Source: Patescibacteria group bacterium (GTDB taxonomy: Bacteria; Patescibacteriota; Patescibacteriia; 2-01-FULL-39-33). From it: DNA of 64,000 nucleotides. The stretch lies in NCBI GenBank assembly GCA_041649575.1, contig JBAZMW010000002.1, positions 78,159 to 142,158 of the forward strand, read 5' to 3'. The notes below the pieces were generated by a model. That model was not told where the DNA came from. It saw only the letters and a list, made by a program, of their open reading frames with translations, and did not search any database. This document shows, piece after piece, positions 2,887-51,163 of the stretch; positions within the stretch are counted from its first letter, which is position 1, and each line of letters starts with the position of its first letter. The position numbers and the translations under genes were made by a program.

Positions 2887-3864
2887 ATGCTAGACCAAAA
2901 TATTAAAAAGTTTTTGGCTAAACTCTCGCAGTCGTTTCTTTTGTTCGCCCCGCAACCGTTGGGGAGTGTTGTTAAAATAAAGCCAGTTGCAGAGATTGGC
3001 AATATCGACTGGTCGGGCGCTATGCCGCTCAACTCCTGGAAAGAAATTTTTTTACCAGCCAGAGAAAGATTATTCGACCTAAAGAAAAATTCTTTTTTTG
3101 AGTCCAAGACGGATTATCCGGCTACCGCCTGCATTGGCATTAATGTTTTGGATTTAAAGGCCTTTACTTTATTTGAACAGGTGTTCGGCCGCGATGCTTA
3201 TTATCAACAGCGGCGTCGCAATCTGTTGCTTGTCGGCTACAGCGCCCAGTGGCCCAATGATTACAAAAAATACAAAGTTTTCAGTCATAACTGGGAAGAA
3301 GATATTTTAGAGCATCTGGTTTTTGATATTTTTATAATTCAACTGAAGAACGATAAAACCAAGATTTACTCCGGTTCAGAGAAAGGGCAATTGATTCTAG
3401 AAAAATACGGCCTGAAAAATTACACGCATTTGGAATTTGCCGGCGCTGTCAAAGAGCAAGGCCCGGATAAAAAAATGTTGGAGCTCAAGGAAAAGCTGGC
3501 TAAGGCCTCCAGCCACAAACTCTGGAACGAACTTGATAAAATTTGCCTGGCCTGCGGTAAATGCTCGATCGCTTGCCCCACTTGTTTTTGTTTTGATTTA
3601 TTTGATAAAGTCGACCCCGATAAGAATTGTCGCGAGCGTTATTGGGGCAATTGTTTTTATAACGATTTTTCCAAGGTGGCCGGCGGTTTTAAAGAGCTAG
3701 ACACAGTCAAAAAGAAGATTTATTTTTGGTATACCCACAAATTTGTCCGCATTCCGCACGAATATTCTCTGCCCGGTTGTGTCGGTTGCGGCCGTTGCAC
3801 TCGTGTTTGTCCGGTGGGAATTGATATTGCCAAAAACGTTTCTATTATCGGTAAAATCAGATAG
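2887..3864 (+). CDS. [NiFe]-hydrogenase group 3b (sulfhydrogenase-type) beta subunit, 4Fe-4S ferredoxin domain protein (HydB/AsrA-like)
   Basis: C-terminal CxxCxxCxxxCP-type motifs (CLACGKCSIACPTCFCFD; CVGCGRCTRVCPVG). Followed 6 nt later by the gamma subunit. Confidence 0.7.
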   Translation: MLDQNIKKFLAKLSQSFLLFAPQPLGSVVKIKPVAEIGNIDWSGAMPLNSWKEIFLPARERLFDLKKNSFFESKTDYPATACIGINVLDLKAFTLFEQVFGRDAYYQQRRRNLLLVGYSAQWPNDYKKYKVFSHNWEEDILEHLVFDIFIIQLKNDKTKIYSGSEKGQLILEKYGLKNYTHLEFAGAVKEQGPDKKMLELKEKLAKASSHKLWNELDKICLACGKCSIACPTCFCFDLFDKVDPDKNCRERYWGNCFYNDFSKVAGGFKELDTVKKKIYFWYTHKFVRIPHEYSLPGCVGCGRCTRVCPVGIDIAKNVSIIGKIR

Positions 3865-3869
3865 TTTCA

Positions 3870-4691
3870 ATGAACAATATTTACCAAGCTCAACCAGCCA
3901 AAATAATCAGTGTCGTTCAAGAATCTTTAGACACCAGGTTTTTTCGCTTGACCTTTGTCAACAAAAAATTACAAAAGGAGCTGGCTTTTCTGCCGGGCCA
4001 ATTCGTGCAAATCGGTTTGCCGGGCTGGGGCGAGTGTCCTATTAGCATCTGTTCTTCCCCCTCCAACGCCAATAAATTCTTTGAGTTAGCCATCAGAAAC
4101 GTCGGTACGCTGACTAATGAGCTTAGTCGGTTGAAAGCCGGGGAAATAGTGTTTATCCGCGGGCCATACGGCAACGGTTTTGATATCGATTTTTCCAAAG
4201 ATAAGCCGCTAGTGATAATCGGCGGTGGTTGCGGTTTTGTGCCACTAAGGCCACTGATTCAGGATTTTTTGGCTGGCCGTTTGTCTAGTTCCAGCCTGCA
4301 GATATTTTATGGCTGCCTCAATGAAAAAACCCTGTTGTTTAGAAAAGAATATCATCTTTGGAATCGCCGCGCCGAACTCAACATTATTTTGGAAAAGCCG
4401 TCCAGAGAATGGAAGGGCAAAAAAGGCCTGATTACAGATCTGCTGGCCCAAAAAAAGATTTCGGCCAGCTCGGTGGCTGTTCTGGTGGGCCCGCCAGTGA
4501 TGTACAGGTTTGTCATCAAGGAACTCAAAAAAAGAAATCTGAAAGATGAAAATATTTATTTGTCGCTGGAGCGGAAAATGTATTGCGGCACTGGTGTTTG
4601 CCAGCATTGTGCCATTGGCCCGTATTATGTCTGTAAAGATGGCCCGGTTTTCTCTTGGAGCCAGCTGAAAGGTTTGCCTCAAGCGATTTAA
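3870..4691 (+). CDS. [NiFe]-hydrogenase group 3b gamma subunit (FAD/NAD(P)-binding oxidoreductase with C-terminal 2Fe-2S cluster, HydG/AsrB-like)
   Basis: Ferredoxin-NADP reductase-like fold motifs (RxFS-type FAD site, GGGCG NAD site) and C-terminal CGTGVCQHCAIG Fe-S motif. Confidence 0.7.
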   Translation: MNNIYQAQPAKIISVVQESLDTRFFRLTFVNKKLQKELAFLPGQFVQIGLPGWGECPISICSSPSNANKFFELAIRNVGTLTNELSRLKAGEIVFIRGPYGNGFDIDFSKDKPLVIIGGGCGFVPLRPLIQDFLAGRLSSSSLQIFYGCLNEKTLLFRKEYHLWNRRAELNIILEKPSREWKGKKGLITDLLAQKKISASSVAVLVGPPVMYRFVIKELKKRNLKDENIYLSLERKMYCGTGVCQHCAIGPYYVCKDGPVFSWSQLKGLPQAI

Positions 4692-4694
4692 TTT

Positions 4695-5207
4695 ATGCTG
4701 TTAACGGTTTTGTTCTTAATAATTATGGTGATTCTTGGCTCTGCCGCCGTTGCCGGTTTGTCTGCTGCTCCTTGGGTGCCAATGAGGAAAGCGGATGTGA
4801 TACGAGCCGTGGAATTAGCTGAAGTGAAAGCCGGTGACAGGGTTTACGATTTGGGTTGTGGTGACGGTCGGTTGGTTTTTGCCGCCAGTGGTCGCGGTGC
4901 CAAAGCGATTGGCTTGGAAATTTCCTTATTGCCTTTTGTTATTGCCAAAATCAGAAGCTGGTTTCAGCCGCTGACCAGGGTGTCATTTAAAAGTTTTTTC
5001 AGACAGAATTTGGAAGATGCCGATGTGGTTTTCGTTTTTTTGATGAAAAAGATTTATCCGAAACTGGCGACAAAACTAACCAAAGAATTGAAGCCGGGAG
5101 CCAGAATCGTGGTTTACTGCTGGCCGATTGATGAATTAAAAAGCAGTCTGATTGAAAAAAATAAGCCAACCGAAAAAGATTTGCCGCTCTATCTTTATCA
5201 AATTTAA
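4695..5207 (+). CDS. Membrane-anchored class I SAM-dependent methyltransferase (paralogue of 50615..51163)
   Basis: N-terminal TM helix, then motif I DLGCGDGR. Aligns along its length with the 50615 ORF (GDxxYDLGCG...G.E....EADVVF.YL...P.ARVVV). Confidence 0.6.
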   Translation: MLLTVLFLIIMVILGSAAVAGLSAAPWVPMRKADVIRAVELAEVKAGDRVYDLGCGDGRLVFAASGRGAKAIGLEISLLPFVIAKIRSWFQPLTRVSFKSFFRQNLEDADVVFVFLMKKIYPKLATKLTKELKPGARIVVYCWPIDELKSSLIEKNKPTEKDLPLYLYQI

Positions 5208-5395: not shown

Positions 5396-6676
5396 ATGTG
5401 CCTCACTCTGCCGGCCAAAGTTGTTAAAGTCAAAGGGTTACAAGCCGAGATTTTAGCCAGTGGCGCAAAACAAGTGGTGAAAATAGGCACTGCCGCTAAA
5501 ATTAGAGCGGGGGATTGGGTGCTTTATACCAATAATTTTTTAATAAAAAAAATCAGTCAGACTGAAGCCGAAGAAATTTCCGCCTTGCTTGGTTCCTATC
5601 AAGGCGTTACCGAAGCTAAACTAGAAAAAAAATTAAAGGACATTCTAACGGCCTCGTCCGTTCGCGATCTAAACGTCGAAGAGATTGAATATCTTTTGGG
5701 AGTTGATGGTCAAATTTCACAGGCAGCTCTTTTTTCACAGGCCAATGTGGCCAGAAAAGCCAATATCAAAGATCATATCTGTATCCATGGCATTATTGAG
5801 TTTTCCAACCACTGTCAAAACGATTGTCTTTATTGCGGCCTAAGGAGAAGTAATGACAAAGTTAGCCGTTACCGCCTGTCGCCGGAAAAAATAATCAAAA
5901 TAGCAGTGGCTGCTGTCAATAATCGCGGTTACAAGATTCTGGTCTTGCAATCGGGCGAAGACGATTATTATAGCGATGGTAAAATAGAATTAATTATAAA
6001 AGAAATAAAAAAACAGGCCAGAGTTTTCATTTATTTAAGTATTGGTGACAGAAGTGAAGCGGCTTACAAAAAATTCAAAGTTGCCGGCGCCAGCGGTGTC
6101 CTATACCGTTTTGAAACTTCCAACCCCGATATCTATGTCAGCCTGCACCCCGGCGACTCTCTGGAAAAAAGATTGGAAAATTTAGAAATGATGAGAAATC
6201 TGGGTTATGCGCTTTCCTCCGGGCCACTCATTGGCTTGCCAGCTCAAACATTAAAAGATTTGGCCAGTGATATAACACTAATGAAAAAGCTGGGTGTGTT
6301 TATGCCCTCAATGGGGCCGTTAATTCCTTCAGCCGAGACGCCGTTGGCCGGTGAAAAAAAGATTGATTTTGGCTTAGTTTTAAAAATGATTGCTGCCAGC
6401 CGTTTGGTTATGCCCAAAGCCAGAATTCCCGTTACTACTGCCATGGAGACTTTGGCGCGAGGCGAGGGAATAAGTATCGATGAAGCTAGACAGAAATGTT
6501 TTATGGCCGGCGCTAATTCCGTAATGTTGAATCTGACTCCTGAAACCCAACGGCAGAAATATTATATTTATGAAAACAAATTTTTTGATGTCGAAAAGAA
6601 ATATGAGAATTGGGGGTTGTTTAAGGGAGAATTGAGTTATCGGATGTTGGAAGAAGAGTTACGGGTCAGTATTTAA
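5396..6676 (+). CDS. Fusion protein: N-terminal HypC/HybG-like hydrogenase maturation domain plus BioB/HydE/ThiH-family radical SAM domain
   Basis: First ~75 aa MCLTLPAKVVKV...GDWVLYTNNFLIKKISQTEAEEISALL match the HypC pattern (MC[LI]x[IVL]P, GDWVLVH...EA). Downstream, IEFSNHCQNDCLYCGLRRSN has a CX3CX2C radical SAM motif closely resembling the HydE/ThiH signature. Single uninterrupted ORF. Confidence 0.65.
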   Translation: MCLTLPAKVVKVKGLQAEILASGAKQVVKIGTAAKIRAGDWVLYTNNFLIKKISQTEAEEISALLGSYQGVTEAKLEKKLKDILTASSVRDLNVEEIEYLLGVDGQISQAALFSQANVARKANIKDHICIHGIIEFSNHCQNDCLYCGLRRSNDKVSRYRLSPEKIIKIAVAAVNNRGYKILVLQSGEDDYYSDGKIELIIKEIKKQARVFIYLSIGDRSEAAYKKFKVAGASGVLYRFETSNPDIYVSLHPGDSLEKRLENLEMMRNLGYALSSGPLIGLPAQTLKDLASDITLMKKLGVFMPSMGPLIPSAETPLAGEKKIDFGLVLKMIAASRLVMPKARIPVTTAMETLARGEGISIDEARQKCFMAGANSVMLNLTPETQRQKYYIYENKFFDVEKKYENWGLFKGELSYRMLEEELRVSI

Positions 6677-7961: not shown

Positions 7962-8792
7962 TTGATTACTAATTACATGGCCAAGGCAAAAAAACCACGA
8001 TTAGCAATTATCGGCCTGACATCTTGTGAGGGCTGCCAGTTTTCCATGCTCGACAAAGGCCGGAGATTCTTGGGTTTAATGAAAAATTTTCAGGTAAAGG
8101 AATTTCGTCTAGTGGAGGATGAAAAAATGCTCGAAGAGAATTTTGACCTGTGTTTGGTTGAGGGCAACCCCGTCACCAAAGAAAACATTAGATTGCTCAA
8201 AGAAATGCGGCGGCGGTCGAAATTGTTAGTAGTTATTGGTAATTGCGCGGCTTTGGGTGGTGTCTGGGAGCTCAAAAATTATCAGAATAAGAAAAAGACC
8301 ATCAGGCAGGTTTATAAAAAAATAAAAGTAGCCAATCCTGACATTAAGGAAGTGGATAATTTTGTTAAAGTTGACTTTACCATCCCCGGTTGTCCCATAG
8401 ACGGTGAGGAGTTTATGGAGCTGGCCTATCAGCTTTTAAGTGGCCGGATTCCGAAAATCCCTCAGAATCCTGTTTGCCATGAATGTCAAACAAGAGGTTA
8501 TGAGTGTTTACTGCAGCAAGGAGAGATTTGTCTCGGGCCGATTACTCTGGGTGGTTGTCGGGCAGTGTGCCTCAAAAGCCGGCAGGCCTGCTGGGGTTGC
8601 CGTGGATTGTTTGAGGGCGCGCGAGTGGAAAATTTAATGAAGGAACTGCTGTCAAAATTTCCTCGCGAACAGGTTTATCGGGTGATGGAGGTGTTTGGAG
8701 CGAGAGATAGTATTTTGAAGGAGTTGGAACAGGAAGAAAAGCCAGCTGAAATTAAAAATGTAAAACTAAAAGTTAAAAATTCTAAAAAATAA
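7962..8792 (+). CDS. [NiFe]-hydrogenase group 3b small (delta) subunit
   Basis: N-terminal LAIIGLTSCEGCQFS Fe-S motif of NiFe small subunits / NuoB-like fold; further Cys clusters (GCPIDG, CHECQ, CLGPITLGGC). Confidence 0.7.
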   Translation: MITNYMAKAKKPRLAIIGLTSCEGCQFSMLDKGRRFLGLMKNFQVKEFRLVEDEKMLEENFDLCLVEGNPVTKENIRLLKEMRRRSKLLVVIGNCAALGGVWELKNYQNKKKTIRQVYKKIKVANPDIKEVDNFVKVDFTIPGCPIDGEEFMELAYQLLSGRIPKIPQNPVCHECQTRGYECLLQQGEICLGPITLGGCRAVCLKSRQACWGCRGLFEGARVENLMKELLSKFPREQVYRVMEVFGARDSILKELEQEEKPAEIKNVKLKVKNSKK

Positions 8793-8796
8793 AGCT

Positions 8797-9117
8797 ATGG
8801 ATAAACAAGAAACAAAATCAGCAAAACCAGAATTACGTGTATCTAGGGATTGTCAAATCGCCTTGGTCACTAAAATGCAAATAGAGCTGATGAAGATGGA
8901 CGGCATTGAAGATACCGACGAAGAAGCCAATCAAAAAGCGCTTGAGTGGGTTGAAAGCAATTCCCCCAAGTTCAGAGAAATTTTTGAGGAGATGTTAGCC
9001 AGAATCCAGGACGATCCTCGTTACGGAGAAATAATTATAAAGGCTGAGGCCGGGTATACTGATGATTTAGTAGAAGCGATGCTGCCGGAAATCAGAACTC
9101 GCATGATGATACTTTAG
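8797..9117 (+). CDS. Hypothetical acidic protein (106 aa) embedded in the hydrogenase cluster
   Basis: ORF tightly packed between the small subunit and the PLP enzyme. No recognisable motif. Confidence 0.3.
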   Translation: MDKQETKSAKPELRVSRDCQIALVTKMQIELMKMDGIEDTDEEANQKALEWVESNSPKFREIFEEMLARIQDDPRYGEIIIKAEAGYTDDLVEAMLPEIRTRMMIL

Positions 9118-9141
9118 CGGTTTAAATAAAAATATATTAAT

Positions 9142-10173
9142 TTGAGTTTTATGTCATTATCTAAAGCGGAGGCTAAAATTCTGCAGTCAATTATTGTGTC
9201 TTCAGAAAATAATCCCAGTCGACCAGAATTTCCGGCCGATGATCCTAAATTTCCCGCCACCCCAACTTATAAAATTAAAGTGCCAGGCTTTTCTAATGTT
9301 TGGCTCAAAGATGAAAGCCATAATCCCACCGGAACCCATAAAGATCGGATGGCTTGGGAAATAATTGTTACTTATCGTGATTTTTTATTGACCCAAAAAC
9401 GAGGGCAAATTAAAGGTATTCTACCGGCCGTGTCAATTATTTCCTCTGGATCGGCGGCTGTCGCCATCCAAACACAACTACGGAAATATCATTTGCCAAA
9501 TCTCAAAGTTTTAGTCGACTCTTATCTTAATCAGGAAATTGTAAATTCACTCAAAAAAATTGGCTGTAGAATTTATAAAACTGATTTAAGCAAAAAACCA
9601 TTTCATTGGAAGGAAATTTTAGAGTTGACTCATAATCCAAATGGTTTTGATATTACTTCTAATGAGGCTTTAGACCCGGCTATGAGATTTTATGACTGGC
9701 TAAGTTATGAGATAATTAATAATTCACCAGACTATTGTTTTATTCCTTTCGGTACCGGCAATCTTTATGAGAATATTTTGAATATTAATAAAAAAGAAGT
9801 TTCAACTAAAAATCATGACCCTCGATTCAAGGGTAAGGTTGAAATTCTTAGGAATTGTAATTTTTTTGGCGTGACGACAAATAATCCAAGATCCCGAGCC
9901 GAAAAACTTTATTCGCCTCACTTGCCTTTTGTCCATTACGATGAGCAGTGGATTAGGCTGTATCGGCATGCCGGTTATTGTGGTCCAAAATCAAATGTTT
10001 ATTTATTGAAGGAGCAATATCTTAATGAGGCAATGAAAATTGCCGTTGCTCAAAAGATAAATTATGAGCCTTCTGGTATCTCTGGACTGGCCTTGCTTCT
10101 ACAAATAAAAAATAAACTTCCTAAAAATAAGAAGATTTTAGTTATTAATACTGGGAAAACTAAATATATTTAG
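9142..10173 (+). CDS. PLP-dependent enzyme, fold type II (threonine synthase / TrpB-like superfamily), divergent
   Basis: LKDESHNPTGTHKDRMAW matches the K-x-E-x-x-NPTGSFKDR PLP-lysine motif. Gly-rich SSGSAAVA, FGTGN and C-terminal EPSGISGLA are consistent with ThrC/CysK-like folds. Confidence 0.5.
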   Translation: MSFMSLSKAEAKILQSIIVSSENNPSRPEFPADDPKFPATPTYKIKVPGFSNVWLKDESHNPTGTHKDRMAWEIIVTYRDFLLTQKRGQIKGILPAVSIISSGSAAVAIQTQLRKYHLPNLKVLVDSYLNQEIVNSLKKIGCRIYKTDLSKKPFHWKEILELTHNPNGFDITSNEALDPAMRFYDWLSYEIINNSPDYCFIPFGTGNLYENILNINKKEVSTKNHDPRFKGKVEILRNCNFFGVTTNNPRSRAEKLYSPHLPFVHYDEQWIRLYRHAGYCGPKSNVYLLKEQYLNEAMKIAVAQKINYEPSGISGLALLLQIKNKLPKNKKILVINTGKTKYI

Positions 10174-10221: not shown

Positions 10222-11520
10222 ATGCGTATCCAAATAAATCACATTGGTAAAATGGAAGGCCACACGGACTTCGTGGCCGAGATTTTGAAAGGTGATGTCA
10301 AATCAGCCAAACTGATGACCACCGAAGGTGCTCGTCTGATAGAGGGCATTTTGGTCGGCCGTAATTTTTACGAGGCGCCGATTATCACTTCTCGCATCTG
10401 TGGTATCTGCCCGGTGGTTCATAAAATTTCCTCCATTAGGGCGCTGGAGAACGCTTTAGCTATTAAGCCCAGTGAACAGACAATTAAATTAAGAAAACTA
10501 ATGCTGATGGCGCAAACCATTCATAGCCACGCCTTACATTTGTTTTTTTTGTCTTTGCCGGATTTTTTCAACCTATTGGACGACTTTAAATTTATTGCCA
10601 ACCATAAAAAAGAAACTGATTGCGCTATTAAGGTGCGTGAGTGGGCTTTGAAAGTTATTGAAACTGTTGGCGGACGGGCGGTACATCCGATTGCTTGTGA
10701 AGTTGGTGGCTTTAAGGTTTTGCCCGACAAAAAAGAATTGAAAGATTTGGCTGATCAATACGAAAACATTCTAAAACAGGCACTGTGTCTGGTGAATCTG
10801 ACTATCAAAATAAAATTTCCCAAATTTAGCCGGCCCACGACCTTCATTTCTTTGACCAATGAAAAAGAATACGCCTTTTATGATGGCGATATTAAAATTT
10901 TAAATAAAAATGGCCAGACAAGGATTATTAAGGCCAAAGATTTTACCAAGAATATTAAGGAGATCGAAGAGCCCTATCGCGCCGCCAAATCGGCTGAGTT
11001 AAAGGGTGAGCCGTTTATGGTCGGCGCTTTGGCGCGACTAAATAACAATCATAGCCAATTGAATCACTTGGCCAAGGGAATTCAAAAAGGTTTAAAATGG
11101 AAGTTCCCGCAGTATAATTCTTTTGAAAATATTACCGCCCAGGCTATTGAAATCGTCCATTGTCTAGAGGAAGCCAAAAAATTACTTGACGATTTAGTTA
11201 AAAATTTGAAAAATGAGACCAGTCAGGCCGAGAAGCTCGGCTTAATTGGTCAGGCCAATCCCTTGGGACGTGAGACAAGTGGCTGTGACGCCAGCGAGGC
11301 GCCGCGTGGCACCTTGTATCATTATTACGCCATTGATAAAGACGGCTATATCAAGGATTGTCAGATTATCACGCCGACGGTGTCTTTTTTAAAAAATTTG
11401 GAAGCAGATATTATTGCCTATATCCCGGATTTGAAAAAAATGTCGCCCGAAAAATGTTCACGCAAAATCCGCGCCCTTATTCGCGCCTATGATCCTTGTA
11501 TTAGTTGCGCCACACATTAA
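10222..11520 (+). CDS. [NiFe]-hydrogenase group 3b large (alpha) catalytic subunit; ends exactly at the C-terminal His of the DPCxxCxxH motif
   Basis: N-terminal Ni-binding motif RICGICPVVH and C-terminal DPCISCATH followed directly by a stop codon. Confidence 0.85.
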   Translation: MRIQINHIGKMEGHTDFVAEILKGDVKSAKLMTTEGARLIEGILVGRNFYEAPIITSRICGICPVVHKISSIRALENALAIKPSEQTIKLRKLMLMAQTIHSHALHLFFLSLPDFFNLLDDFKFIANHKKETDCAIKVREWALKVIETVGGRAVHPIACEVGGFKVLPDKKELKDLADQYENILKQALCLVNLTIKIKFPKFSRPTTFISLTNEKEYAFYDGDIKILNKNGQTRIIKAKDFTKNIKEIEEPYRAAKSAELKGEPFMVGALARLNNNHSQLNHLAKGIQKGLKWKFPQYNSFENITAQAIEIVHCLEEAKKLLDDLVKNLKNETSQAEKLGLIGQANPLGRETSGCDASEAPRGTLYHYYAIDKDGYIKDCQIITPTVSFLKNLEADIIAYIPDLKKMSPEKCSRKIRALIRAYDPCISCATH

Positions 11521-11558: not shown

Positions 11559-11915
11559 ATGGCATTTAGATTCGAAAGTTTGGAGATTTGGAAAGAGGCG
11601 ATTAATTTTTCTAGTTCTACTTATAAAATTACTCGTCAGTTTCCCAAAGAAGAACTGTTTAGTTTATCTAGTCAGTTAAATCGGGCTGCGATTTCTATTT
11701 CGGCTAATATAGCCGAGGGCTCGGCAAGTGATAGTGTAAAAGAGTTTAGAATGTTTCTGAATATTTCCATTAGATCTGGCGTCGAAGTAATATCTGAATT
11801 ATTTATAGCTAAAGAAAGAAGCTATTTATCAGACGAAGAATTCGGCGAGTTATACAATACTGGAGAATTATTAATAAGAAGAATTTCCTCATTTCGCAAT
11901 CAATTAAAATTATAA
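11559..11915 (+). CDS. Four-helix-bundle protein (23S rRNA intervening-sequence protein family, TIGR02436/PF05635-like)
   Basis: Signature SSQLNRAAISISANIAEGSA; 118 aa. Family is common in CPR genomes. Confidence 0.75.
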   Translation: MAFRFESLEIWKEAINFSSSTYKITRQFPKEELFSLSSQLNRAAISISANIAEGSASDSVKEFRMFLNISIRSGVEVISELFIAKERSYLSDEEFGELYNTGELLIRRISSFRNQLKL

Positions 11916-11938: not shown

Positions 11939-12193
11939 ATGCACGATTTCCACTTAGCCGACATAATCTATAAAACAATTTTAGATTACGCCCAAAAAAA
12001 TAATTTGAAAAAAATCACCAAAGCGGTGATTGATTTGGGACAGATTATTGAGCATGGTGAGGAGGTGTTGGCGGAAAATTTGGATTTTAATATCAAAATG
12101 TTGGCCCAAGGTGGCCTGGCCGAAGGCTTAGAGCTGGTTATTAACAAAACAGCCGGTGATAGCTGGGTGCTAAAGGAAATAGAAGGAGTATAA
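11939..12193 (+). CDS. HypA-like hydrogenase nickel-incorporation protein lacking the C-terminal zinc-finger domain
   Basis: N-terminus MHDFHL (the MHE Ni-binding motif of HypA) and core similarity to HypA. Protein stops where the CxxC...CxxC Zn domain normally begins. Confidence 0.5.
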   Translation: MHDFHLADIIYKTILDYAQKNNLKKITKAVIDLGQIIEHGEEVLAENLDFNIKMLAQGGLAEGLELVINKTAGDSWVLKEIEGV

Positions 12194-12202
12194 TTTATTT
12201 TT

Positions 12203-13384
12203 ATGAAAGTAAAATCAATCAGGCAATTAAAAAAATTTCAGGGCAAAAAAGTTTTGCTAAGAGTTGATTTTAATGTTTCCTTGGGAGCCAATCATAGGGT
12301 TGATAAAGCGGAAGATTACCGGATTGTCAAAACCTTGCCGACCATAAAATTTTTGACCAGTCGCGGTGCCAGAGTGATCATTATGGCCCATTTGGGCCGA
12401 CCACATGGCAAAATAGTGGAAAACTTGCGTTTAAAACCGGTAGCCGAAAAATTGTCAGAACTATTGAAGAAAAAAGTTTTGTATAGCAAAACCGTTTTAG
12501 GCGCCGAAACCAAACAATTAATCAAACAGATGAAGGCTGGCGATGTTTTAATGCTGGAAAATTTGCGTTTTGACATTCGGGAAGAGCGGGGAGACAAAAA
12601 TTTTGCTCGGCAGCTGGCGGAATTAGGCGATATCTACATCAATGAAGCTTTTGCCGACAATCACCGCCATCACGCTTCGACCGCCATCATTCAAGATTAT
12701 TTGCCGGCTTACGCTGGCCTGCTGCTGGAGCAAGAAATTCTGAATTTGACCAAAGTTCTAAAAAAACCCAAACAACCGCTGGTGGTGATAATCGGCGGTA
12801 CCAAGATGGAAACAAAAATAAGAGTTATTAAAAATTTTTCTAAAGTTGCCAAGAAAATTCTTTTGGGCGGCGCTTTGGCCAATACGGTTTTGCACGTGAT
12901 GGGCGTTAGCGTCGGCAGATCACCGGTGGAAAAATCAATGTTTTCCGAAGTCAAAAAATTTAAATTGACGGCCAATCAGATCGTGGTGCCTCTCGACGGC
13001 GTCATGGCCGCCAAAATCGACAGCCAAAAGGGCCGGATGGACGCTTTGGCAGACGTCAGAGATAATGAATTGATTTTGGATGTCGGTCCTGATACCATAA
13101 AACTCTATGAAAAAATCATCAAATCCGCTAAAATGGTAATGTGGAACGGGCCAATGGGGCTGATAGAAAATCCGGTTTTTGCCAAAGGCACCCAGGCGCT
13201 GATAAAAATTTTGGCCAATTCTTGCGCCGAAACCATCGTCGGTGGCGGCGAGACCGTGCAAATGATTCGGCAAATGAAATTAGAAAACAAATTTAATTTT
13301 GTTTCTACCGGCGGGGGAGCGATGCTGGAGTTTTTGGAGGGAAAAAAATTACCTGGGCTAAAAAAGTTGATTAAGAATTTATAA
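12203..13384 (+). CDS. pgk: Phosphoglycerate kinase
   Basis: 393 aa; motifs RVDFNVSL, MAHLGRP, GGGA..MLEFLEGKKLPG typical of PGK. Confidence 0.9.
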   Translation: MKVKSIRQLKKFQGKKVLLRVDFNVSLGANHRVDKAEDYRIVKTLPTIKFLTSRGARVIIMAHLGRPHGKIVENLRLKPVAEKLSELLKKKVLYSKTVLGAETKQLIKQMKAGDVLMLENLRFDIREERGDKNFARQLAELGDIYINEAFADNHRHHASTAIIQDYLPAYAGLLLEQEILNLTKVLKKPKQPLVVIIGGTKMETKIRVIKNFSKVAKKILLGGALANTVLHVMGVSVGRSPVEKSMFSEVKKFKLTANQIVVPLDGVMAAKIDSQKGRMDALADVRDNELILDVGPDTIKLYEKIIKSAKMVMWNGPMGLIENPVFAKGTQALIKILANSCAETIVGGGETVQMIRQMKLENKFNFVSTGGGAMLEFLEGKKLPGLKKLIKNL

Positions 13385-13390
13385 CTTTTT

Positions 13391-13428
13391 TGTCATTGCG
13401 AGCGGAGTGAAACGCAGCGAAGCAATCT
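13391..13428. repeat. Left arm of an inverted repeat flanking the GIY-YIG gene
   Basis: tgtcattgcgagcggagtgaaacgcagcgaagcaatct. Its reverse complement (with an internal ~10-nt deletion) is at 13737-13764. Confidence 0.75.
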
Positions 13429-13444
13429 TTTAGATAAGACAGAT

Positions 13445-13735
13445 ATGGCCAAATATTATTACGTTTATGTTTTGACTAATGCCAACAATTATGTTTTATA
13501 CACAGGAGTCACAAATAATTTGCAGAGAAGGTTATGGGAACACAAAAGCGGTAAGGCGGACGGTTTTACTAAAAAATATAAGTGTAAAAAATTGGTTTAT
13601 TATGAATATTCGGAGTCAATAGGCGCAGCCATAAATAGAGAAAAACAAATTAAGGCCGGCTCAAGAAAAAAGAAATTGGAATTGATAAACAATTTTAATC
13701 CGCAGTGGTTGGATTTGGGGCTGGAGATGTTTTAA
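13445..13735 (+). CDS. GIY-YIG nuclease family protein (small, 96 aa)
   Basis: YYVYVLTNANNYVLYTGVTNNLQRRLWEH carries the GIY-x10-YIG and R/E catalytic pattern. Confidence 0.8.
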   Translation: MAKYYYVYVLTNANNYVLYTGVTNNLQRRLWEHKSGKADGFTKKYKCKKLVYYEYSESIGAAINREKQIKAGSRKKKLELINNFNPQWLDLGLEMF

Positions 13736-13736
13736 G

Positions 13737-13764
13737 AGATTGCTTCGCTTTGCTCGCAATGACA
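13737..13764. repeat. Right arm of the inverted repeat flanking the GIY-YIG gene
   Basis: agattgcttcgctttgctcgcaatgaca is the reverse complement of the ends of 13391-13428. Confidence 0.75.
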
Positions 13765-13827
13765 AAATAAAACAGCCTACAATCAATGAATTAACTAAGA
13801 AAAATTAATAAATAACCAGAAATTTTT

Positions 13828-14616
13828 ATGGACGAACAAAAACTAGACTGCTGCCATAGCAGTAAATGCCATTGTGCCAAGTACGTAATTCTTGGCATCT
13901 TGGCCTTGGCCCTGATTGTTTACGTGGGCGTTTTAACCAGGAACGCCTGGCGGACTTACGATTATATCGGTAAGTCGCCCGATATTCAGGATAGGATTAC
14001 TGTCACCGGTACCGCCAAAGTCAGCGCCACGCCGGATGTGGCTGTGCTATACTTGGGAATTGTCAGCGAAGGCGCTACGGTTAATGCGGCGCAAAAAGGC
14101 GTCACCGAAAAAATGAATTCCATCATCGATTCTTTGAAAAAAGAATTTAAGATTGAGGCCAAGGATATTCAGACTCAAAATTTTAGTGTTAATCCCAAGT
14201 ACGACTGGAGCGACGGCAAGCAAAGAATTATCGGTTACAGCGCCAATCAAAGTGTTCAGGTAAAAGTCAGAGACTTTGACAAGACCGGTGATATTTTGGC
14301 CAAAGCGACCGATTTGGGCGCTAACACCGTTTCTGGTCCGAATTTTATAATCGACGATCCGGAAAAGGCCAAGGCCGAGGCCAGGGATAAAGCCATTGCC
14401 CAGGCCAAGGAAAAAGCCAGTTTGCTTGCCGATCAGGTTGGCATTAAGCTGGGCAGAATTGTTAATTTTTATGAAGGCGGCAATGAAATGCCTAATGCAG
14501 TTTACAGCCGTGATATGGCCATCGGTCTGGGTGAGACAAAGTCCGTTGCCCCGGTCATTGAACCAGGCAGCCAGGACGTGCAACTCACCGTCAGTATTAG
14601 TTATGAAATAAGATAA
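13828..14616 (+). CDS. SIMPL-domain protein (DUF541 / YggE-like) with an N-terminal Cys/His-rich segment and a TM anchor
   Basis: C-terminal KAKAEARDKAIAQAKEKASLLADQVG...VSISYEI resembles SIMPL/26 kDa periplasmic immunogenic protein. N-terminus CCHSSKCHC. Confidence 0.55.
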   Translation: MDEQKLDCCHSSKCHCAKYVILGILALALIVYVGVLTRNAWRTYDYIGKSPDIQDRITVTGTAKVSATPDVAVLYLGIVSEGATVNAAQKGVTEKMNSIIDSLKKEFKIEAKDIQTQNFSVNPKYDWSDGKQRIIGYSANQSVQVKVRDFDKTGDILAKATDLGANTVSGPNFIIDDPEKAKAEARDKAIAQAKEKASLLADQVGIKLGRIVNFYEGGNEMPNAVYSRDMAIGLGETKSVAPVIEPGSQDVQLTVSISYEIR

Positions 14617-14665
14617 CTTGTCACTTTTCTTTCTCTAGGAGAAAGAAAAGCTGATGCAAAAGAAA

Positions 14666-14754
14666 CCCGCCCGTGCCGAACGCCAGCCCGACAGATCATT
14701 CTGGCGGGGTACGTTCGGGCGGGGAGTCGCGAGCTAAATTTTCATTTAGCTCGC
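14666..14754 (+). promoter_or_regulatory. Two stable hairpins in the eno 5' region
   Basis: Hairpin 1: cccgcccg..cgaacg / cgttcgggcgggg with inner gccag/ctggc (14666-14724). Hairpin 2: perfect 11-bp stem gcgagctaaat-tttc-atttagctcgc (14729-14754). Neither is followed by a T-run. Confidence 0.4.
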
Positions 14755-14796
14755 AGGAAAAAAAATCAAAATCAAAAAAAATACTAAAACTTAATT

Positions 14797-16086
14797 ATGG
14801 CAAAAATCAAGTCAATTGCAGTGCGCGAAATTTTGGCTTCTGGCGGGGCGCCGAGTTTGGAAGCAAAAGTAATTTTAGAATCAGGGGCGACAGGAGTAGC
14901 CTCGGTCTCCTATGGAGCATCGGCCGGCAGTAAGGAAGCTTTTGTGATGCTTGACGGCGACAAAAATCGTTATAACGGCAAAGGCATGCTTAAGGCCAAA
15001 GAAAAAATCGATTTGATAATTGCTCCGGCTTTGATCGGCAAGGAGGCCAATGACCAAAGGGAGATCGACGAGCTGATGCTGCAACTGGATGGAACAATAA
15101 ACAAAGCCAATTTGGGCGGCAATTCTATTTTGGCGGTTTCGCTGGCGGTGGCCAGAGCCGCTGCCGCTGATAATGATTTACCGTTATATAAATATCTAAG
15201 AAAAGTTTTCGCTATCAGTCCAGCTTCTTTGACAAGCAACAGTTCGGAGTATTGGAAAATGCCCAAGCCGATGGTGGTAATGATCGAGGGCGGCAAACAC
15301 GCCGATGAAACCACCGACTTGCAAGAGTATTTAATTTCTTCCCTAGGCAACAGGAGCGCGGCAGAAAACGTGAGAATACAGATGGAGATTTATGAGGCCC
15401 TGAAAAAGATTCTAAAAAGAGAAGGATTGTCCACTAATGTCGGCAATGAGGGAGCTTTTGCGCCGGGCGGTATTGTTGGTAATGAAAAACCGATGGAATA
15501 TTTTGTCGAGGCCATAAAAAATGCTGGTTATACGCCCGGTGTTGATGCTGGTATTTCCATTGATGCCGCGGCCAGCGAGCTCTACAGCGAAGAAACAAAA
15601 AAGTATACCTTGGCGCTGGAGAAAAAAGAAATGACCTCGGAAGAATTAGTCGCTTATTATTTATCTTGGATAGATAAATACCCTTTCGTGTCCTGGGAAG
15701 ACATGCTCTCGGAGTTTGACTGGGAACATTGGCCAAAACTGGTGGAGGCGGTAAACAGTAAAATAATAATTATCGCCGACGATTTGACAGTGACCAATCT
15801 CAAGTTGTGGCAAAAAGCCATTGATGAAAAAGCAGCCACCGGGATTTTAATTAAGCTAAATCAGGCCGGTTCGGTGACCGAGACGGTGGATTGCTGTGTT
15901 TTGGCTCAAAAGCATGGTTTTTGGAAAGTGCCCTCTCATCGTGGCGGCGGAGAAACCAACGATACCTTTATGGTTGATTTGGCCGTAGCGGTTGGTGGTG
16001 AGTATATTAAAGTAGGCCCCACCAGAGGAGAAAGGGTTTGTAAATATAATCGGCTGATGGAGATAGAGGAGGAGATTAACGGCTAG
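14797..16086 (+). CDS. eno: Enolase
   Basis: 429 aa with canonical enolase motifs (SIAVREILASGGAPSLEAKV; LIKLNQAGSVTET; SHRGGGETND). Confidence 0.95.
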   Translation: MAKIKSIAVREILASGGAPSLEAKVILESGATGVASVSYGASAGSKEAFVMLDGDKNRYNGKGMLKAKEKIDLIIAPALIGKEANDQREIDELMLQLDGTINKANLGGNSILAVSLAVARAAAADNDLPLYKYLRKVFAISPASLTSNSSEYWKMPKPMVVMIEGGKHADETTDLQEYLISSLGNRSAAENVRIQMEIYEALKKILKREGLSTNVGNEGAFAPGGIVGNEKPMEYFVEAIKNAGYTPGVDAGISIDAAASELYSEETKKYTLALEKKEMTSEELVAYYLSWIDKYPFVSWEDMLSEFDWEHWPKLVEAVNSKIIIIADDLTVTNLKLWQKAIDEKAATGILIKLNQAGSVTETVDCCVLAQKHGFWKVPSHRGGGETNDTFMVDLAVAVGGEYIKVGPTRGERVCKYNRLMEIEEEING

Positions 16087-16123
16087 TATTAAAATATTTT
16101 TGCCTCAGTGGGTTAAGAGTTTT

Positions 16124-16169
16124 TTAAAAAAGAAAACTGCCTCATCCTGCGCGTGCGTAGGTGAGGCAG
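16124..16169 (-). terminator. Rho-independent terminator for the minus-strand gene at 16191-16631
   Basis: Stem ctgcctca...tgaggcag with the T-run on the minus strand (plus-strand aaaaaagaaaa at 16126-16136). Confidence 0.6.
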
Positions 16170-16190
16170 TCGTGAAGAACGGGTCGGCCA

Positions 16191-16631
16191 CTACTTTACG
16201 AAGTTGAAGTGGCCATAGCGCATGCCGCTGTGAAGCCACCCGACGATTGCTTCGCCCTTGTACTCGCCGTCAAGGACATGGGCCGTGAATAGCCAGGAGG
16301 CTTCCCTACGCTCTCCCAAAAAGTCCAACAGGAGACCGGTGATGCGAATCGTTACTGTTTTCAGGTTGAATTCGTCGCTGGTCGCCGTACGGATTTGCTC
16401 GTCGGTAGCGCTCAGGTTGGTCGTGGCATACTGCAGGAGGCAGTAAATCATCTGTCTACCATTGTATATCCTGAGCGAGTCTATTAGCGTCGCCTGGCCC
16501 GGACAGCTTGTCACGTGGTTTTCGAAGTGCTCCCGCTTTCTGTACTTTGAGTCGGTAAGCAGCTTTGTTAGGGCCAGCCGGACAGCCTCGTCAAGCTCCA
16601 CAAAGCAGCCATTTCGTTCATTTGTTGCCAT
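16191..16631 (-). CDS. Hypothetical protein, G+C-rich orphan gene (likely start at the second Met with a GGAGGTG Shine-Dalgarno sequence)
   Basis: ORF of about 146 aa (MATNERNGCF...) with strong RBS ggaggtgcctt-ATG. Composition is clearly G+C-richer than flanks. No recognisable domain. Confidence 0.45.
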   Translation of the reverse strand: MATNERNGCFVELDEAVRLALTKLLTDSKYRKREHFENHVTSCPGQATLIDSLRIYNGRQMIYCLLQYATTNLSATDEQIRTATSDEFNLKTVTIRITGLLLDFLGERREASWLFTAHVLDGEYKGEAIVGWLHSGMRYGHFNFVK

Positions 16632-16772
16632 AAGGCACCTCCATTTCTTGCTAACGTACACCAGTCTCACTCACAGAGGCGGAGACTTGCCTCCATATTC
16701 CGCTAGGCGGAACGACCCATCCATAAGAATGGGAATTAATATATTTTACTAAATAGAATAGTTTTTGTCAAG

Positions 16773-18341
16773 ATGGCAGTTAATAAACCAAAACAATCTA
16801 AAAAAGTGATTTTATTAATTTTAGACGGCTGGGGGATTGGCAAAAATGACGCCTCCAATCCGATTTTTTTGGTCCGGCCGAAATTCATCAATTCGCTTTA
16901 TAAGAAATACCCTCACACCCAGATTTGCGCCTCTGGCCGTTGTGCCGGGCTGCCGCCGGATCAAGTAGGTAATTCCGAGGCTGGGCACATGAACTTGGGT
17001 GCCGGACGAGTGGTCGACCAGGATGCTGTCAAAATTTCCAAACAAATAAATACCGGTGAATTTTTCAAAAACCCGGCTTTTTTGGCGGCGTTTAGCCACG
17101 TCAGAAAAAATAATTCCGCCCTGCACTTGATAGGCATGCTTTCTAACGGGCAGAGTCCGCACAGCGATCCCGATCATCTTTTGGCCCTGTTGACCATGAC
17201 GCGGAAATATAAGGTCAAAAGGATTTATCTGCATTTATTCACCGACGGACGCGATAGCCCGCAACATTCCAGTCTGAAGTCAATAATGGCCTTGGAGCGA
17301 TCTTTGAAACCTAATGAAATAATCGCCACTGTCATTGGCCGTTTTTATGCCATGGACCGCAAAAAATCATGGGACCGCACGGTGCGCTCTTATAACGCCA
17401 TGACCGCCGATCACAGCGAACATCGCGCCAATAGCCCGCAGGCCGGAATCATGCGCGCCTATAACGCCAACATTACCGATGAGTTCATAGAGCCGATTGT
17501 TATTTATCGAAAAGGAAAAATAATCAGAAGAATAAGTGACGATGACGCGATTATTTTTTTTAATTTGCGCAGCGACCGCGCCCGTCAGCTGGCCAAGCCT
17601 TTTGTCCAGCATGATTTCGAAGCAGCCAATCCCGGCTCGGAAAAATTTCCCCGCAAAGAAATCCTAAAAAATATAGTTTTTGTCGCCATGACCGATTTTG
17701 GCCCCGATTTAGATAATATCTTGACCGCCTACCCCTCCGAAGATTTAAAAAATACTTTGCCTTTTGTTTTAAAAAACAAGAAGCAGGTTTATATTGCCGA
17801 GAGCGAGAAATACGCCCACGTCACTTTCTTTTTTAATGGCGGTTATGCCGATCCGGTTGCCGGGGAAAAAAGGATAAACGTTCCTTCGCCCCGAGTCAGG
17901 TCTTATGATGCGGCTCCGGCGATGTCGACCGCGGCCATTACCAAAAAAGTTATCTCCAGCCTCAAGAGTTACGATTTTATTTGCGCCAATTTTGCGTGTC
18001 CGGATATGATTGGCCATACCGGCAATCTGCTGGCGGCCAAGCAAACAGTCAAAGCGGTTGACGGCTATCTAAAAAAGGTGGTTTCCGCTTGCCTGAAACA
18101 GCAGGCAACCTTGATCATTACAGCCGATCATGGTAATATAGAGTACATGCGCAATCTTGATACCGACGAAGTTGTTACCGAGCATACCACCAATCCGGTG
18201 CCCTTTATTGTTATCAATAAAAATTTTAACAGAAACAGTCATTTGAAAAAGGGCGGATTTTTGGGTAATGTGGCGCCTACGATTCTAAAATTACTTGGCA
18301 TCAAAAAGCCAAAAGAAATGACCAAAGACAGCCTGATTTAA
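16773..18341 (+). CDS. gpmI: 2,3-bisphosphoglycerate-independent phosphoglycerate mutase, copy 1
   Basis: LILDGWG, GNSEAGH (phospho-Ser site), GRFYAMDRD, PDMIGHTG, TADHGN motifs. Confidence 0.9.
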   Translation: MAVNKPKQSKKVILLILDGWGIGKNDASNPIFLVRPKFINSLYKKYPHTQICASGRCAGLPPDQVGNSEAGHMNLGAGRVVDQDAVKISKQINTGEFFKNPAFLAAFSHVRKNNSALHLIGMLSNGQSPHSDPDHLLALLTMTRKYKVKRIYLHLFTDGRDSPQHSSLKSIMALERSLKPNEIIATVIGRFYAMDRKKSWDRTVRSYNAMTADHSEHRANSPQAGIMRAYNANITDEFIEPIVIYRKGKIIRRISDDDAIIFFNLRSDRARQLAKPFVQHDFEAANPGSEKFPRKEILKNIVFVAMTDFGPDLDNILTAYPSEDLKNTLPFVLKNKKQVYIAESEKYAHVTFFFNGGYADPVAGEKRINVPSPRVRSYDAAPAMSTAAITKKVISSLKSYDFICANFACPDMIGHTGNLLAAKQTVKAVDGYLKKVVSACLKQQATLIITADHGNIEYMRNLDTDEVVTEHTTNPVPFIVINKNFNRNSHLKKGGFLGNVAPTILKLLGIKKPKEMTKDSLI

Positions 18342-18353
18342 AATTTATTTTTT

Positions 18354-19949
18354 ATGTCTGACATAAATAACAATACTCGCCCCAAGCCGGTGGTTTTGAT
18401 AATTCTCGACGGTTGGGGAGTGGCGCCGGCCTCGCGAGCCAATGCCATTTCTCTGGCCAAAACGCCAGCCATTAACAATCTAATCAAGACTTATCCGGCC
18501 ATGACGCTTCAGGCTTCTGGCGAGGCAGTGGGCTTGTCGTGGGGAGAAATAGGAAATTCCGAGGTTGGCCATCTTAATCTCGGTTCCGGGAAATTAATTT
18601 ATCAAAATTTGCCGCGAATCAACAAGGCTATTACCGATGGCTCCTTTTTCAAAAATGACAAATTTTTGGCAGCAGTAAAATCCGCCAAAGACAAAGGCGC
18701 CGCTCTTCATTTGATGGGCTTGGCTTCTTCCGGCGGCGTCCATAGCTCCATCGACCATCTGTTTGCTTTAATGGAACTTTGTGCCAAGGAAAAACTCAAA
18801 GAGGTTTTTATTCATGTTTTTCTGGATGGTCGCGACATGCCTTACAATTCCGGCATTGATTTTATTAATAAGATTCAACAGAAAATCGCCGAGTATAAAA
18901 TTGGCCAGATTGCTTCTATTTCCGGCCGTTTTTATGCCATGGATCGCGATAATCACTGGGAGCGCATAATTTTGGCCTATAACGCCATGGTGAAGGGAGA
19001 GGCGGAAAATAAATTTACTGATCCGCTAAAGGCCGTTCAATCATCTTATGACAAAAAAATTTATGATGAAGAGTTTGTCCCGACGGTTATCATCAAGAAT
19101 AATTCTCCGGTGGGCACCATTAAGGCCGGTGATTCAGTAATTTTTTTCAATTTTAGAAGCGACCGCGCTCGAGAAATCACCAAAGCTTTTGTTCTGCCAG
19201 GTTTTGAGAAGTTTCCTCGCCAGTATCTCAAAGATTTGTATTTTGTATCTATGACCGAGTATGAAAAAGAGTTGCCGGTAGAAGTCGCTTTCCCACCGGA
19301 AAATATCACCGAGCCGCTAGCCAAAGTGATTGCCGCCGCCGGTCTGAAACAGCTTCATATTGCCGAAACCGAAAAATACGCCCACGTCACTTTCTTTTTT
19401 AATGGCGGCCTGGAGGAGCAATTTACCGGCGAAGAACGCATCTTGGTCCCTTCGCCGCGCGTGGCTTCTTATGCTCAGAAGCCAGAGATGTCTGCCAAGG
19501 AGGTGACCAAAAAAATAGTTAAGGAAATCATGGATGATAAATACGATTTTATAGTGATTAATTTTGCCAACGGCGATATGGTTAGCCACACCGGTGACCT
19601 GAAGGCCACCATTAAAGCCTGCGAGGTGATTGATGGTTGTGTTAAGCAAATAGTCGAAGTAGTTTTAGCCAAAAATGGAGCGGCTTTTATTACAGCCGAC
19701 CATGGCAATGCCGAGGAGCTGGTTAATTTGCAATCGGGCGAAATCGACAAAGAGCACAGCACTTATCCGGTGCCTTTTATTATTATCGGCAAGCAGTGGG
19801 AAGGCAAAACTGCCGGTTTGTCCGAGGTGCCTAATTCCGATTTAAGCTTGGTTCAGCCGTCGGGCATCCTTTCCGATGTCGCTCCGACGATTCTTAAGGT
19901 GATGAATTTGGAGAAACCAGAGGCAATGACCGGTCGCAGCCTGCTTTAA
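18354..19949 (+). CDS. gpmI: 2,3-bisphosphoglycerate-independent phosphoglycerate mutase, copy 2 (tandem paralogue)
   Basis: Same motif set (LIILDGWG, GNSEVGH, GRFYAMDRD, GDMVSHTG, TADHGN). Roughly 40% identical to copy 1 by eye. Confidence 0.9.
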   Translation: MSDINNNTRPKPVVLIILDGWGVAPASRANAISLAKTPAINNLIKTYPAMTLQASGEAVGLSWGEIGNSEVGHLNLGSGKLIYQNLPRINKAITDGSFFKNDKFLAAVKSAKDKGAALHLMGLASSGGVHSSIDHLFALMELCAKEKLKEVFIHVFLDGRDMPYNSGIDFINKIQQKIAEYKIGQIASISGRFYAMDRDNHWERIILAYNAMVKGEAENKFTDPLKAVQSSYDKKIYDEEFVPTVIIKNNSPVGTIKAGDSVIFFNFRSDRAREITKAFVLPGFEKFPRQYLKDLYFVSMTEYEKELPVEVAFPPENITEPLAKVIAAAGLKQLHIAETEKYAHVTFFFNGGLEEQFTGEERILVPSPRVASYAQKPEMSAKEVTKKIVKEIMDDKYDFIVINFANGDMVSHTGDLKATIKACEVIDGCVKQIVEVVLAKNGAAFITADHGNAEELVNLQSGEIDKEHSTYPVPFIIIGKQWEGKTAGLSEVPNSDLSLVQPSGILSDVAPTILKVMNLEKPEAMTGRSLL

Positions 19950-50614: not shown

Positions 50615-51163
50615 ATGTTGCTTTATTTATTCTTGTTTTTATTTTTATTTTTAACGATTTTTGCCCTGCTGATGTCTTTCTCTTTAATCGTCGGCCTGAT
50701 TCAAACGGGGGGAGTGCCTTTCGTTTCTACCTCTAGAAGAGGTTTCGACGCCATTTCGCAATTAGCCGAAATAAAGCCCGGTGATATTATTTACGATTTG
50801 GGTTGCGGCAAGGCGCATTTTCTGATTCAGACGGTTAAAAAACATAACGCCCGAGGCATCGGTTACGAATTGGCTCTTTGGCCATATCTGTGGGCCAAGT
50901 TTAATGTTTGGCGGAGTCGGGCTAGGGTAAAAATTTATCGGAAAAATTTTTTTAAAGCCAGTCTTAATGAAGCCGATGTCGTTTTCTGTTATCTGTTTCC
51001 CGGGACAATGGTCAAATTGGAGCCGAAATTTAGCGTTGAATTAAGACCCAACGCCAGGGTGGTTGTCGCTGCTTTCCAGTTACCCAATCTAGAGCCGAAA
51101 AAATCAGTTTTAATTAATGATAATAACACAAAATTAGGTAAGTTTTATCTCTATGTTTTTTAG
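50615..51163 (+). CDS. Membrane-anchored class I SAM-dependent methyltransferase (paralogue of 4695..5207)
   Basis: N-terminal TM helix; DLGCGKAH motif I; collinear with the 4695 ORF. Confidence 0.6.
   Translation: MLLYLFLFLFLFLTIFALLMSFSLIVGLIQTGGVPFVSTSRRGFDAISQLAEIKPGDIIYDLGCGKAHFLIQTVKKHNARGIGYELALWPYLWAKFNVWRSRARVKIYRKNFFKASLNEADVVFCYLFPGTMVKLEPKFSVELRPNARVVVAAFQLPNLEPKKSVLINDNNTKLGKFYLYVF

Follow-up and report, generated by a model that had tools for sequence, protein, structure and literature searches.

The group 3b [NiFe]-hydrogenase of Thermococcus kodakarensis is activated by one endopeptidase (PMC7654741). In the summary of Kwon et al. 2018 given in PMC7294309, the C-terminal extension of its apo large subunit, HyhL, takes the place of an N-terminal strand and helps to present HypA to the open active site; once nickel is in place, the extension is cleaved off and the C-terminus can close. 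Whether such a peptide and its protease are essential checkpoints of [NiFe]-hydrogenase assembly is debated (PMC7294309, PMC7654741). Large subunits of groups 2b and 2d (H2 sensors, e.g. Cupriavidus necator HoxC), 4c (CO-linked), 4e (Ech-type) and 4g naturally lack the extension and still acquire the standard NiFe(CN)2CO site (PMC7294309; PMC7654741). In addition, HoxG(proc) – an engineered, tail-less form of the C. necator membrane-bound hydrogenase (MBH) – carries the full cofactor and is active (PMC7294309). Neither of these sources lists group 3b as tail-less (PMC7294309; PMC7654741). Here we describe a large subunit of group 3b type that ends at its C-terminal metal-binding motif. It is encoded at positions 10222..11520 (+ strand) of a 64,000-nucleotide stretch of a Patescibacteria genome (assembly GCA_041649575.1, contig JBAZMW010000002.1), hereafter the window. 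Its sequence and that of its relatives suggest that it is probably the functional catalytic subunit of a four-subunit (alpha-beta-gamma-delta) cytosolic [NiFe]-hydrogenase, inherited without a tail and matured without C-terminal cleavage.

The open reading frame (ORF) encodes a 432-amino acid (aa) protein with a PF00374 domain. Both metal-binding motifs can be read from the translation: RICGICPVVH at residues 58–67 (10393..10422, + strand; Cys60 and Cys63) and DPCISCATH at residues 424–432 (11491..11517, + strand; Cys426 and Cys429), with His432 as the last residue. The C-terminus is ...LIRAYDPCISCATH, i.e. ...AYDPCISCATH, and the TAA stop codon follows directly (11518..11520, + strand). The initial annotation had proposed that the subunit ends at the DPCxxCxxH motif with no downstream ORF continuing its frame, and both observations hold: zero residues follow His432, and the ORF that comes next, from 11559 on, is read in a different frame. 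Comparison of the C-terminal boundary with characterized enzymes places the last residue opposite the final residue of the 419-aa Pyrococcus furiosus SHI alpha chain (9e1j_B) and opposite His424 of the 428-aa T. kodakarensis precursor (5yxy_A), which has 4 residues after this His where the window protein has 0.

We found that this ending is conserved. A search of ~5.8 billion proteins for close homologues gave, as its best 120 matches, proteins at 53–100% identity, those with a named source deriving mostly from Patescibacteria, Buchananbacteria or Parcubacteria metagenome-assembled genomes (MAGs). The C-terminal motif is present in 118 of these 120 (54–100% identity), every one of which has the motif His as its last residue; the remaining two are fragments. 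At 14 further tail-less loci the His codon is followed by TAA, TAG or TGA. Synonymous changes precede this stop, and after it comes unrelated, stop-rich sequence without a conserved frame. The use of all three stop codons and the lack of a conserved downstream frame indicate that a stop at exactly this position is conserved. The initial annotation had raised the possibility of a premature stop created by sequencing error. That the stop after His432 is an artefact of sequencing, assembly or gene calling, and that the real protein carries a propeptide, has no observation in its favour and is hardly conceivable given a shared terminal residue across many independent assemblies, the absence of any in-frame continuation at the 14 other loci and the variety of their stop codons. 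Readthrough is ruled out by the same evidence, and recoding of UGA is irrelevant because the stop in the window is TAA.

Sequence, fold and partner subunits identify the window protein as a group 3b (sulfhydrogenase/HyhL-type) large subunit, an assignment drawn from best matches and partner genes. Its top PDB sequence matches are alpha subunits of the cytosolic hydrogenase SHI, one from T. kodakarensis and one from P. furiosus (E ~1e-56, ~30% identity, full length). The top NCBIfam models are ShyA (231.6 bits) and HydA (223.9 bits); both scores are far under the equivalog cut-offs (700 and 880), which is what a distant lineage would be expected to show. An alignment of 20 diverse 3b proteins (A1) shows R58, I59, C60, C63, D424, P425, C426, C429 and H432 to be invariant. 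Together with a further alignment (A3), it shows that the window protein retains the invariant [NiFe] residues E12, G13, R58, C60, C63, H67, H103, H106, D114, R362, D424–C429 and H432 – among them all four Cys, the EGH near the N-terminus, the arginine of PRG and the His that ends the protein. Consistent with an intact fold, an AlphaFold2 model of the subunit (predicted local distance difference test score (pLDDT) 83.7, predicted template modelling score (pTM) 0.86) has the P. furiosus SHI alpha subunit as its best Foldseek match (template modelling (TM) score 0.82–0.85, root-mean-square deviation 2.4 Å). Model confidence is very low at residues 1–38 (10222–10335) and lowered over the last ~10 residues. 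Both segments rearrange when T. kodakarensis HyhL matures, though the shallow alignment (44 sequences) may explain the low values.

The beta, gamma and delta partners expected of a group 3b enzyme are all encoded in the window. The hydrogenase small (delta) subunit lies at 7962..8792 (+ strand; PF01058 Oxidored_q6, best NCBIfam match ShyD/HydD). The beta subunit, a 4Fe-4S dicluster protein with a Fer4_22 domain, lies at 2887..3864 (+ strand). The gamma subunit, recognized from its FAD/NAD-binding and DHODB-type Fe-S domains and from synteny, lies at 3870..4691 (+ strand). As in the window, the beta subunit gene is upstream of delta and alpha in most 3b loci. Both metal motifs and the alpha-beta-gamma-delta set are thus the same as in P. 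furiosus SHI HydA and T. kodakarensis HyhL (PDB 9e1j/9nf0, 5yxy).

We next placed the absence of a tail within group 3b. The initial annotation had contrasted the window protein with a canonical extension of 15–30 aa, a baseline that proved wrong for this group. HMMER, run exhaustively over 1.84 billion cluster representatives, identified 150 relatives at 31–77% identity (31–47% for the full-length ones). Among these, 83 have a tail of 4–24 residues, mostly 7–9 (e.g. FLEVKFV), and 43 have no residues after the motif His; 2 carry long C-terminal fusions and 22 are fragments or motif variants. The Thermococcus-like tail, IVRL, has just 4 residues, the length also found in T. kodakarensis. As 3b tails are mostly 7–9 residues, the step to zero is a small one, with fewer than 10 residues lost.

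In a neighbour-joining tree of 139 sequences, the window protein falls within an all-tail-less clade of 47. The tree contains 54 tail-less leaves in total, and parsimony requires at least 7 state changes, with the tail lost inside group 3b. The wider tail-less clade includes a protein from a Thermoleophilia MAG and one from a Korarchaeota MAG. We found no compensatory positions that separate tail-less from tailed proteins at a 70% consensus threshold in both groups. Like members of the extension-less class, the window gene ends at the motif His and its relatives conserve this ending. Collectively, these comparisons indicate that the tail-less state is an inherited, selected trait that is fixed across a large clade.

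Several fusion proteins were observed among the relatives. One tail-less subclade consists of small–large subunit fusions, every one of which lacks a tail. In P0246 and P0266, which lie inside the tail-less clade and are themselves tail-less, the small subunit (Oxidored_q6) is fused N-terminally to the large subunit; P0289 and P0358 were judged to be fusions of the same kind from their length and clade. P0259 has an FmdE-like domain after a normal 3b-type tail. Finally, P0377 has a HycI protease domain after the motif, making it a natural fusion of large subunit and HycI.

Endopeptidase-dependent maturation is marked by a C-terminal peptide after the motif His or Arg, and the window protein has no such peptide. 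We looked for a nearby maturation protease, which the initial annotation had named as an observation that would speak against a protease-independent process. Pfam scans of essentially all gene-sized ORFs in the 64-kb window detected no HycI/HybD-type protease (PF01750), nor did precomputed Pfam annotations of ~9 kb upstream and ~6 kb downstream on the same 235-kb contig (~14 kb of flanks), giving no match in ~78 kb of the contig. A divergent protease among the unannotated window ORFs was likewise rejected: these ORFs gave no Pfam matches, and the best score in the window against a local HycI model was E = 34.

This local model – a hidden Markov model that was seeded with the protease domain of P0377 and has PF01750 proteins as its matches – was run over 84 fetched loci. 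Loci from a scan of GTDB species genomes were counted if 700 bp or more of sequence followed the large subunit. A HycI gene is present at 47 of the 61 tailed loci, mostly overlapping or directly following the large-subunit stop, and at none of the 13 tail-less loci (the window included; Fisher's exact test, p = 1.9e-7). A tree of locus proteins resolves four independent tail-less lineages: the Patescibacteria-type clade, L082, L071 with L076, and L027. In the tree, each has tailed, HycI-linked relatives around it but is itself without a HycI gene, which gives a conservative figure of ~0.23^4 = 0.003 when one event is counted per lineage. A weak model match at the end of the L027 large subunit (E = 0.085) was treated as noise because the sequence lacks protease motifs. 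The tail and the adjacent protease gene were lost together. This co-loss supports the protease-independent maturation proposed in the initial annotation, which we consider well supported by the sequence comparisons – by the missing cleavable peptide, by the absence of PF01750 from the window and its flanks, and by the 0/13 versus 47/61 distribution – with the absence of the protease established for ~78 kb of the 235-kb contig, which is in turn one part of a larger genome.

Certain observations weigh against this interpretation. The comparison of loci is only partly corrected for relatedness, and the trees are neighbour-joining trees without support values. HycI is also absent within 10 kb at 14 of the 61 tailed loci, implying that the protease gene can be distant; in some organisms it is found far from the hydrogenase genes. 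Finally, Pfam scans of gene-sized window ORFs detected none of HypB, HypD, HypE and HypF.

The possible distance of the protease gene bears on whether a HycI-family protease encoded elsewhere in the genome still acts on the subunit, for example as a non-cutting chaperone or proofreader. A passage of PMC7654741 describes a Salmonella maturation protease that binds a large subunit without the peptide, and the tailed loci that lack a nearby HycI fit the same idea. We nevertheless regard it as quite improbable, given that HycI is missing from all 13 tail-less loci but present at 47 of the 61 tailed ones, that the adjacent gene has gone in each of the four lineages that lost the tail independently, and that ~78 kb of the contig contains no match.

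The missing Hyp genes bear on a different possibility, namely a hydrogenase-like relic or sensor, in place of a catalytic enzyme, that lost its tail because it no longer matures normally. Some known tail-less large subunits are indeed H2 sensors (PMC7294309), and the window cluster is interrupted by unrelated genes. Against this, conservation across the clade extends to all four Cys and the remaining invariant residues of the active site, the fold is predicted to be intact, and genes for beta, gamma, delta, HypC and HypA are syntenic across distant Patescibacteria; moreover, the window scans showed no regulatory partner of the kind of a histidine kinase or response regulator. We therefore consider a relic or sensor very improbable.

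We favour maturation without C-terminal cleavage, as would follow from a subunit that has no tail and a lineage that has lost the adjacent endopeptidase gene. Cofactor insertion, activity and the order of steps are inferred here by analogy with characterized systems. The primary translation product already ends at the His that, in related enzymes, is made C-terminal only by proteolysis. The Fe(CN)2CO unit would be delivered via the HypC domain described below, and nickel would come from the short HypA, whose gene lies a short way after that of the large subunit; the C-terminal segment with Cys426, Cys429 and His432 would then close over the site unaided.

Similar maturation has precedents outside group 3b, where the same course is assumed for regulatory, Ech-type and CO-linked hydrogenases without a natural tail. 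As in the window protein, the large-subunit ORFs of groups 2b, 2d, 4c, 4e and 4g end at the last residue of the motif, and an extension-less ORF needs no endopeptidase step. However, these proteins come from other hydrogenase groups, and by sequence the window protein has closer relatives. By analogy, the window protein would work like the known tail-less hydrogenases without being their homologue at the group level. HoxG(proc) differs in being an artificial truncation of a group 1 enzyme, obtained at lower yield, whereas the window protein represents a natural, conserved state. Tail-less maturation as a phenomenon is thus already known from other [NiFe] groups, to which the window protein adds a case within group 3b. 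Our literature search, in which subscription journals were thinly covered, found nothing specific on a tail-less group 3b enzyme or on Patescibacteria hydrogenase maturation. With respect to T. kodakarensis, the window differs not only in having no protease gene nearby but also in its HypA, which is without a Zn-finger domain, and in its HypC, which is fused to a radical SAM enzyme.

The initial annotation described a Zn-finger-less HypA and a HypC fusion, and both descriptions are accurate. The short HypA (11939..12193, + strand) has 84 aa and matches positions 1–69 of the 112 in PF01155 with 29.8 bits (cut-off 28.9). It begins with the N-terminal Met-His-Glu/Asp nickel site of HypA proteins (MHD at residues 1–3). 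It contains no cysteine and therefore no Zn finger, the two CxxC motifs being absent; the Zn-binding domain is likewise missing from HypA at all Patescibacteria-type loci. The T. kodakarensis HypA that was co-crystallized with HyhL thus has a homologue in the window, one that aligns only with its residues 1–63. In all tail-less Patescibacteria-type loci a short HypA gene lies no more than ~600 bp downstream of the large subunit, in the region that HycI occupies in tailed loci. Short HypAs of 84–95 aa with an MHD start and no cysteine were observed at L001, L003, L005–L012, L087 and L088, and those of Moraniibacteria have a His-rich insert (HDGHPEH). A similar Zn-less HypA was also observed together with HycI at L047, L057 and L067.

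The HypC fusion (5396..6676, + strand) joins a HypC domain (aa 1–65, Cys2 present; PF01455) to a HydE-like radical SAM/BATS enzyme (PF04055 and PF06968) in one ORF. Consistent with the sequence features of HydE, the radical SAM CX3CX2C motif is present as CQNDCLYC, the BATS domain PF06968 is present, and the fusion passes the TIGR03956 rSAM_HydE cut-off marginally (257 bits vs 254.6). The genomic context of a HydE was not observed, as window Pfam scans detected none of the Fe_hyd_lg_C, HydF and HydG families; the enzyme is instead part of a HypC fusion within a [NiFe] cluster. The fusion arrangement occurs in nearly all of the best 120 database clusters listed, down to 43% identity. Within our set of loci, it was also found at L003/L004 (7936–9201), L020 (12038–13372), L013, L023, L047, L057, L063 and L067. 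We found no paper on a HypC-HydE fusion in a literature search that covered subscription journals thinly.

We observed that the fusion and the HypD/HypE machinery segregate at the level of loci. No fusion-bearing locus has HypD or HypE within 10 kb, and loci with HypD/E have a stand-alone HypC. The HypC domains also differ: in those of the fusions (5396–5600 in the window), and in HypCs that stand alone at several Patescibacteria loci, the 'VHxGFA' motif is missing its His. This His is kept in 8/8 HypD/HypE-linked HypCs, and Cys2 is kept in all HypCs aligned. The reference row of this alignment represents Escherichia coli HypC. The best 120 relatives listed for a Moraniibacteria-type HypD, all at least 63% identical, show that HypD is widespread in the Moraniibacteria lineage; none of these 120 matched a fusion-bearing contig, a listing too shallow to bear on HypD in the window lineage.

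Such a pattern could reflect a lineage-specific, re-wired maturation in which the HypC-HydE-like fusion and the Zn-less HypA replace HypB, HypD, HypE and HypF as well as HycI. The conservation of the fusion and the short HypA in the cluster, the separation of the fusion from HypD/E and the missing VHxGFA His all agree with this proposal. However, the fusion and Zn-less HypA also stand next to tailed large subunits with HycI in other phyla, namely at L020 (an Atrimonadaceae chromosome) and at L047, L057, L063 and L067 (Omnitrophota, WOR-1 and Brevinematales MAGs). Conversely, tail-less Moraniibacteria loci encode a canonical HypC-HypD-HypE set and HypF (C-terminal domain) together with a short HypA and no HycI, and the absence of HypD/E/F from fusion-bearing loci is a local one. 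We hold a replacement of this kind to be unlikely. The initial annotation had linked tail loss to a minimal, atypical accessory set. The set itself is real, but it is not specific to the tail-less state: tail loss and accessory set are separable, and the Moraniibacteria loci imply that a tail-less 3b subunit is compatible with the standard Hyp machinery.

A broader version of the idea extends beyond the tail. In the window lineage and in other fusion-bearing 3b clusters, the Fe(CN)2CO unit might be built or handled by the HydE-type radical SAM enzyme and a HypC that lacks the HypD-associated His, with a Zn-less HypA and without HypB, HypD, HypE and HypF – the Patescibacteria version also dispensing with the tail and protease checkpoint. 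We regard this as a speculative and rather improbable proposal. If true, it would represent a second, radical-SAM-based route for [NiFe] cofactor assembly and would link [NiFe] and [FeFe] maturation chemistry. The HypC-HydE-like fusion and the Zn-less HypA are a more unusual part of the locus than the loss of the tail.

Additional genes were observed in and around the cluster. Two genes lie between delta and alpha (8797..10173, + strand): a 106-aa ORF without a family match and a pyridoxal phosphate-dependent (PALP) enzyme that weakly resembles threonine synthase, SbnA and CysM. L001 has its PALP gene elsewhere, and in L003/L004 it is absent. Two paralogous ORFs (4695–5207 and 50615–51163) resemble an archaeal protein-lysine N-methyltransferase (NF041081, under the cut-off). 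The one at 4695–5207 separates gamma from the HypC fusion, a place that is taken in L003/L004 by a methyltransferase-domain gene. A 23S rRNA-intervening-sequence protein (11559–11915) is encoded between the large subunit and HypA.

Downstream, the region 12203–19949 encodes PGK, a SIMPL/DUF541 protein, enolase and two tandem iPGM paralogues (16773–18341 and 18354–19949), with a GIY-YIG nuclease-domain protein (13445–13735) after PGK. This order of lower-glycolysis genes after the hydrogenase cluster is conserved across distant Patescibacteria (L001, L003, L005 and L006); Moraniibacteria loci have GAPDH, TIM and aldolase nearby instead of the PGK-enolase-iPGM set. The Moraniibacteria type differs further in that HoxE/F/U-like diaphorase genes replace beta and gamma (L087/L088, 6900–9700). 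In these two Moraniibacteriota loci, a gene for a Peptidase_M10-like zinc metalloprotease lies between the small and large subunit genes (L087, 16422–17375; L088, 15211–16161); the protein contains the motif HExxGHxxGxxH, and its hydrophobic N-terminal segment suggests export. Other loci contain CbiM, a Ni/Co uptake component, inside the cluster (L001, 4950–6036) or an [FeFe]-hydrogenase-like (Fe_hyd_lg_C) gene adjoining HypC (L011, 3680–5128).

These results bear on the debate over the C-terminal peptide and its protease. The clade described here is a natural group 3b case in which close relatives with and without a tail coexist and the tail, where present, is only 4–9 residues long. Because tailed and tail-less 3b proteins are so closely related, they offer a clean comparative system, with or without an adjacent HycI. 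In the tail-less small–large subunit fusions, the role proposed for the tail in preventing premature subunit docking would be unnecessary, which suggests that this role is dispensable in the fusion-bearing clade. Heterologous expression of tail-less 3b enzymes would require one fewer maturation factor. Finally, loss of the tail together with its protease fits the genome streamlining of Patescibacteria.

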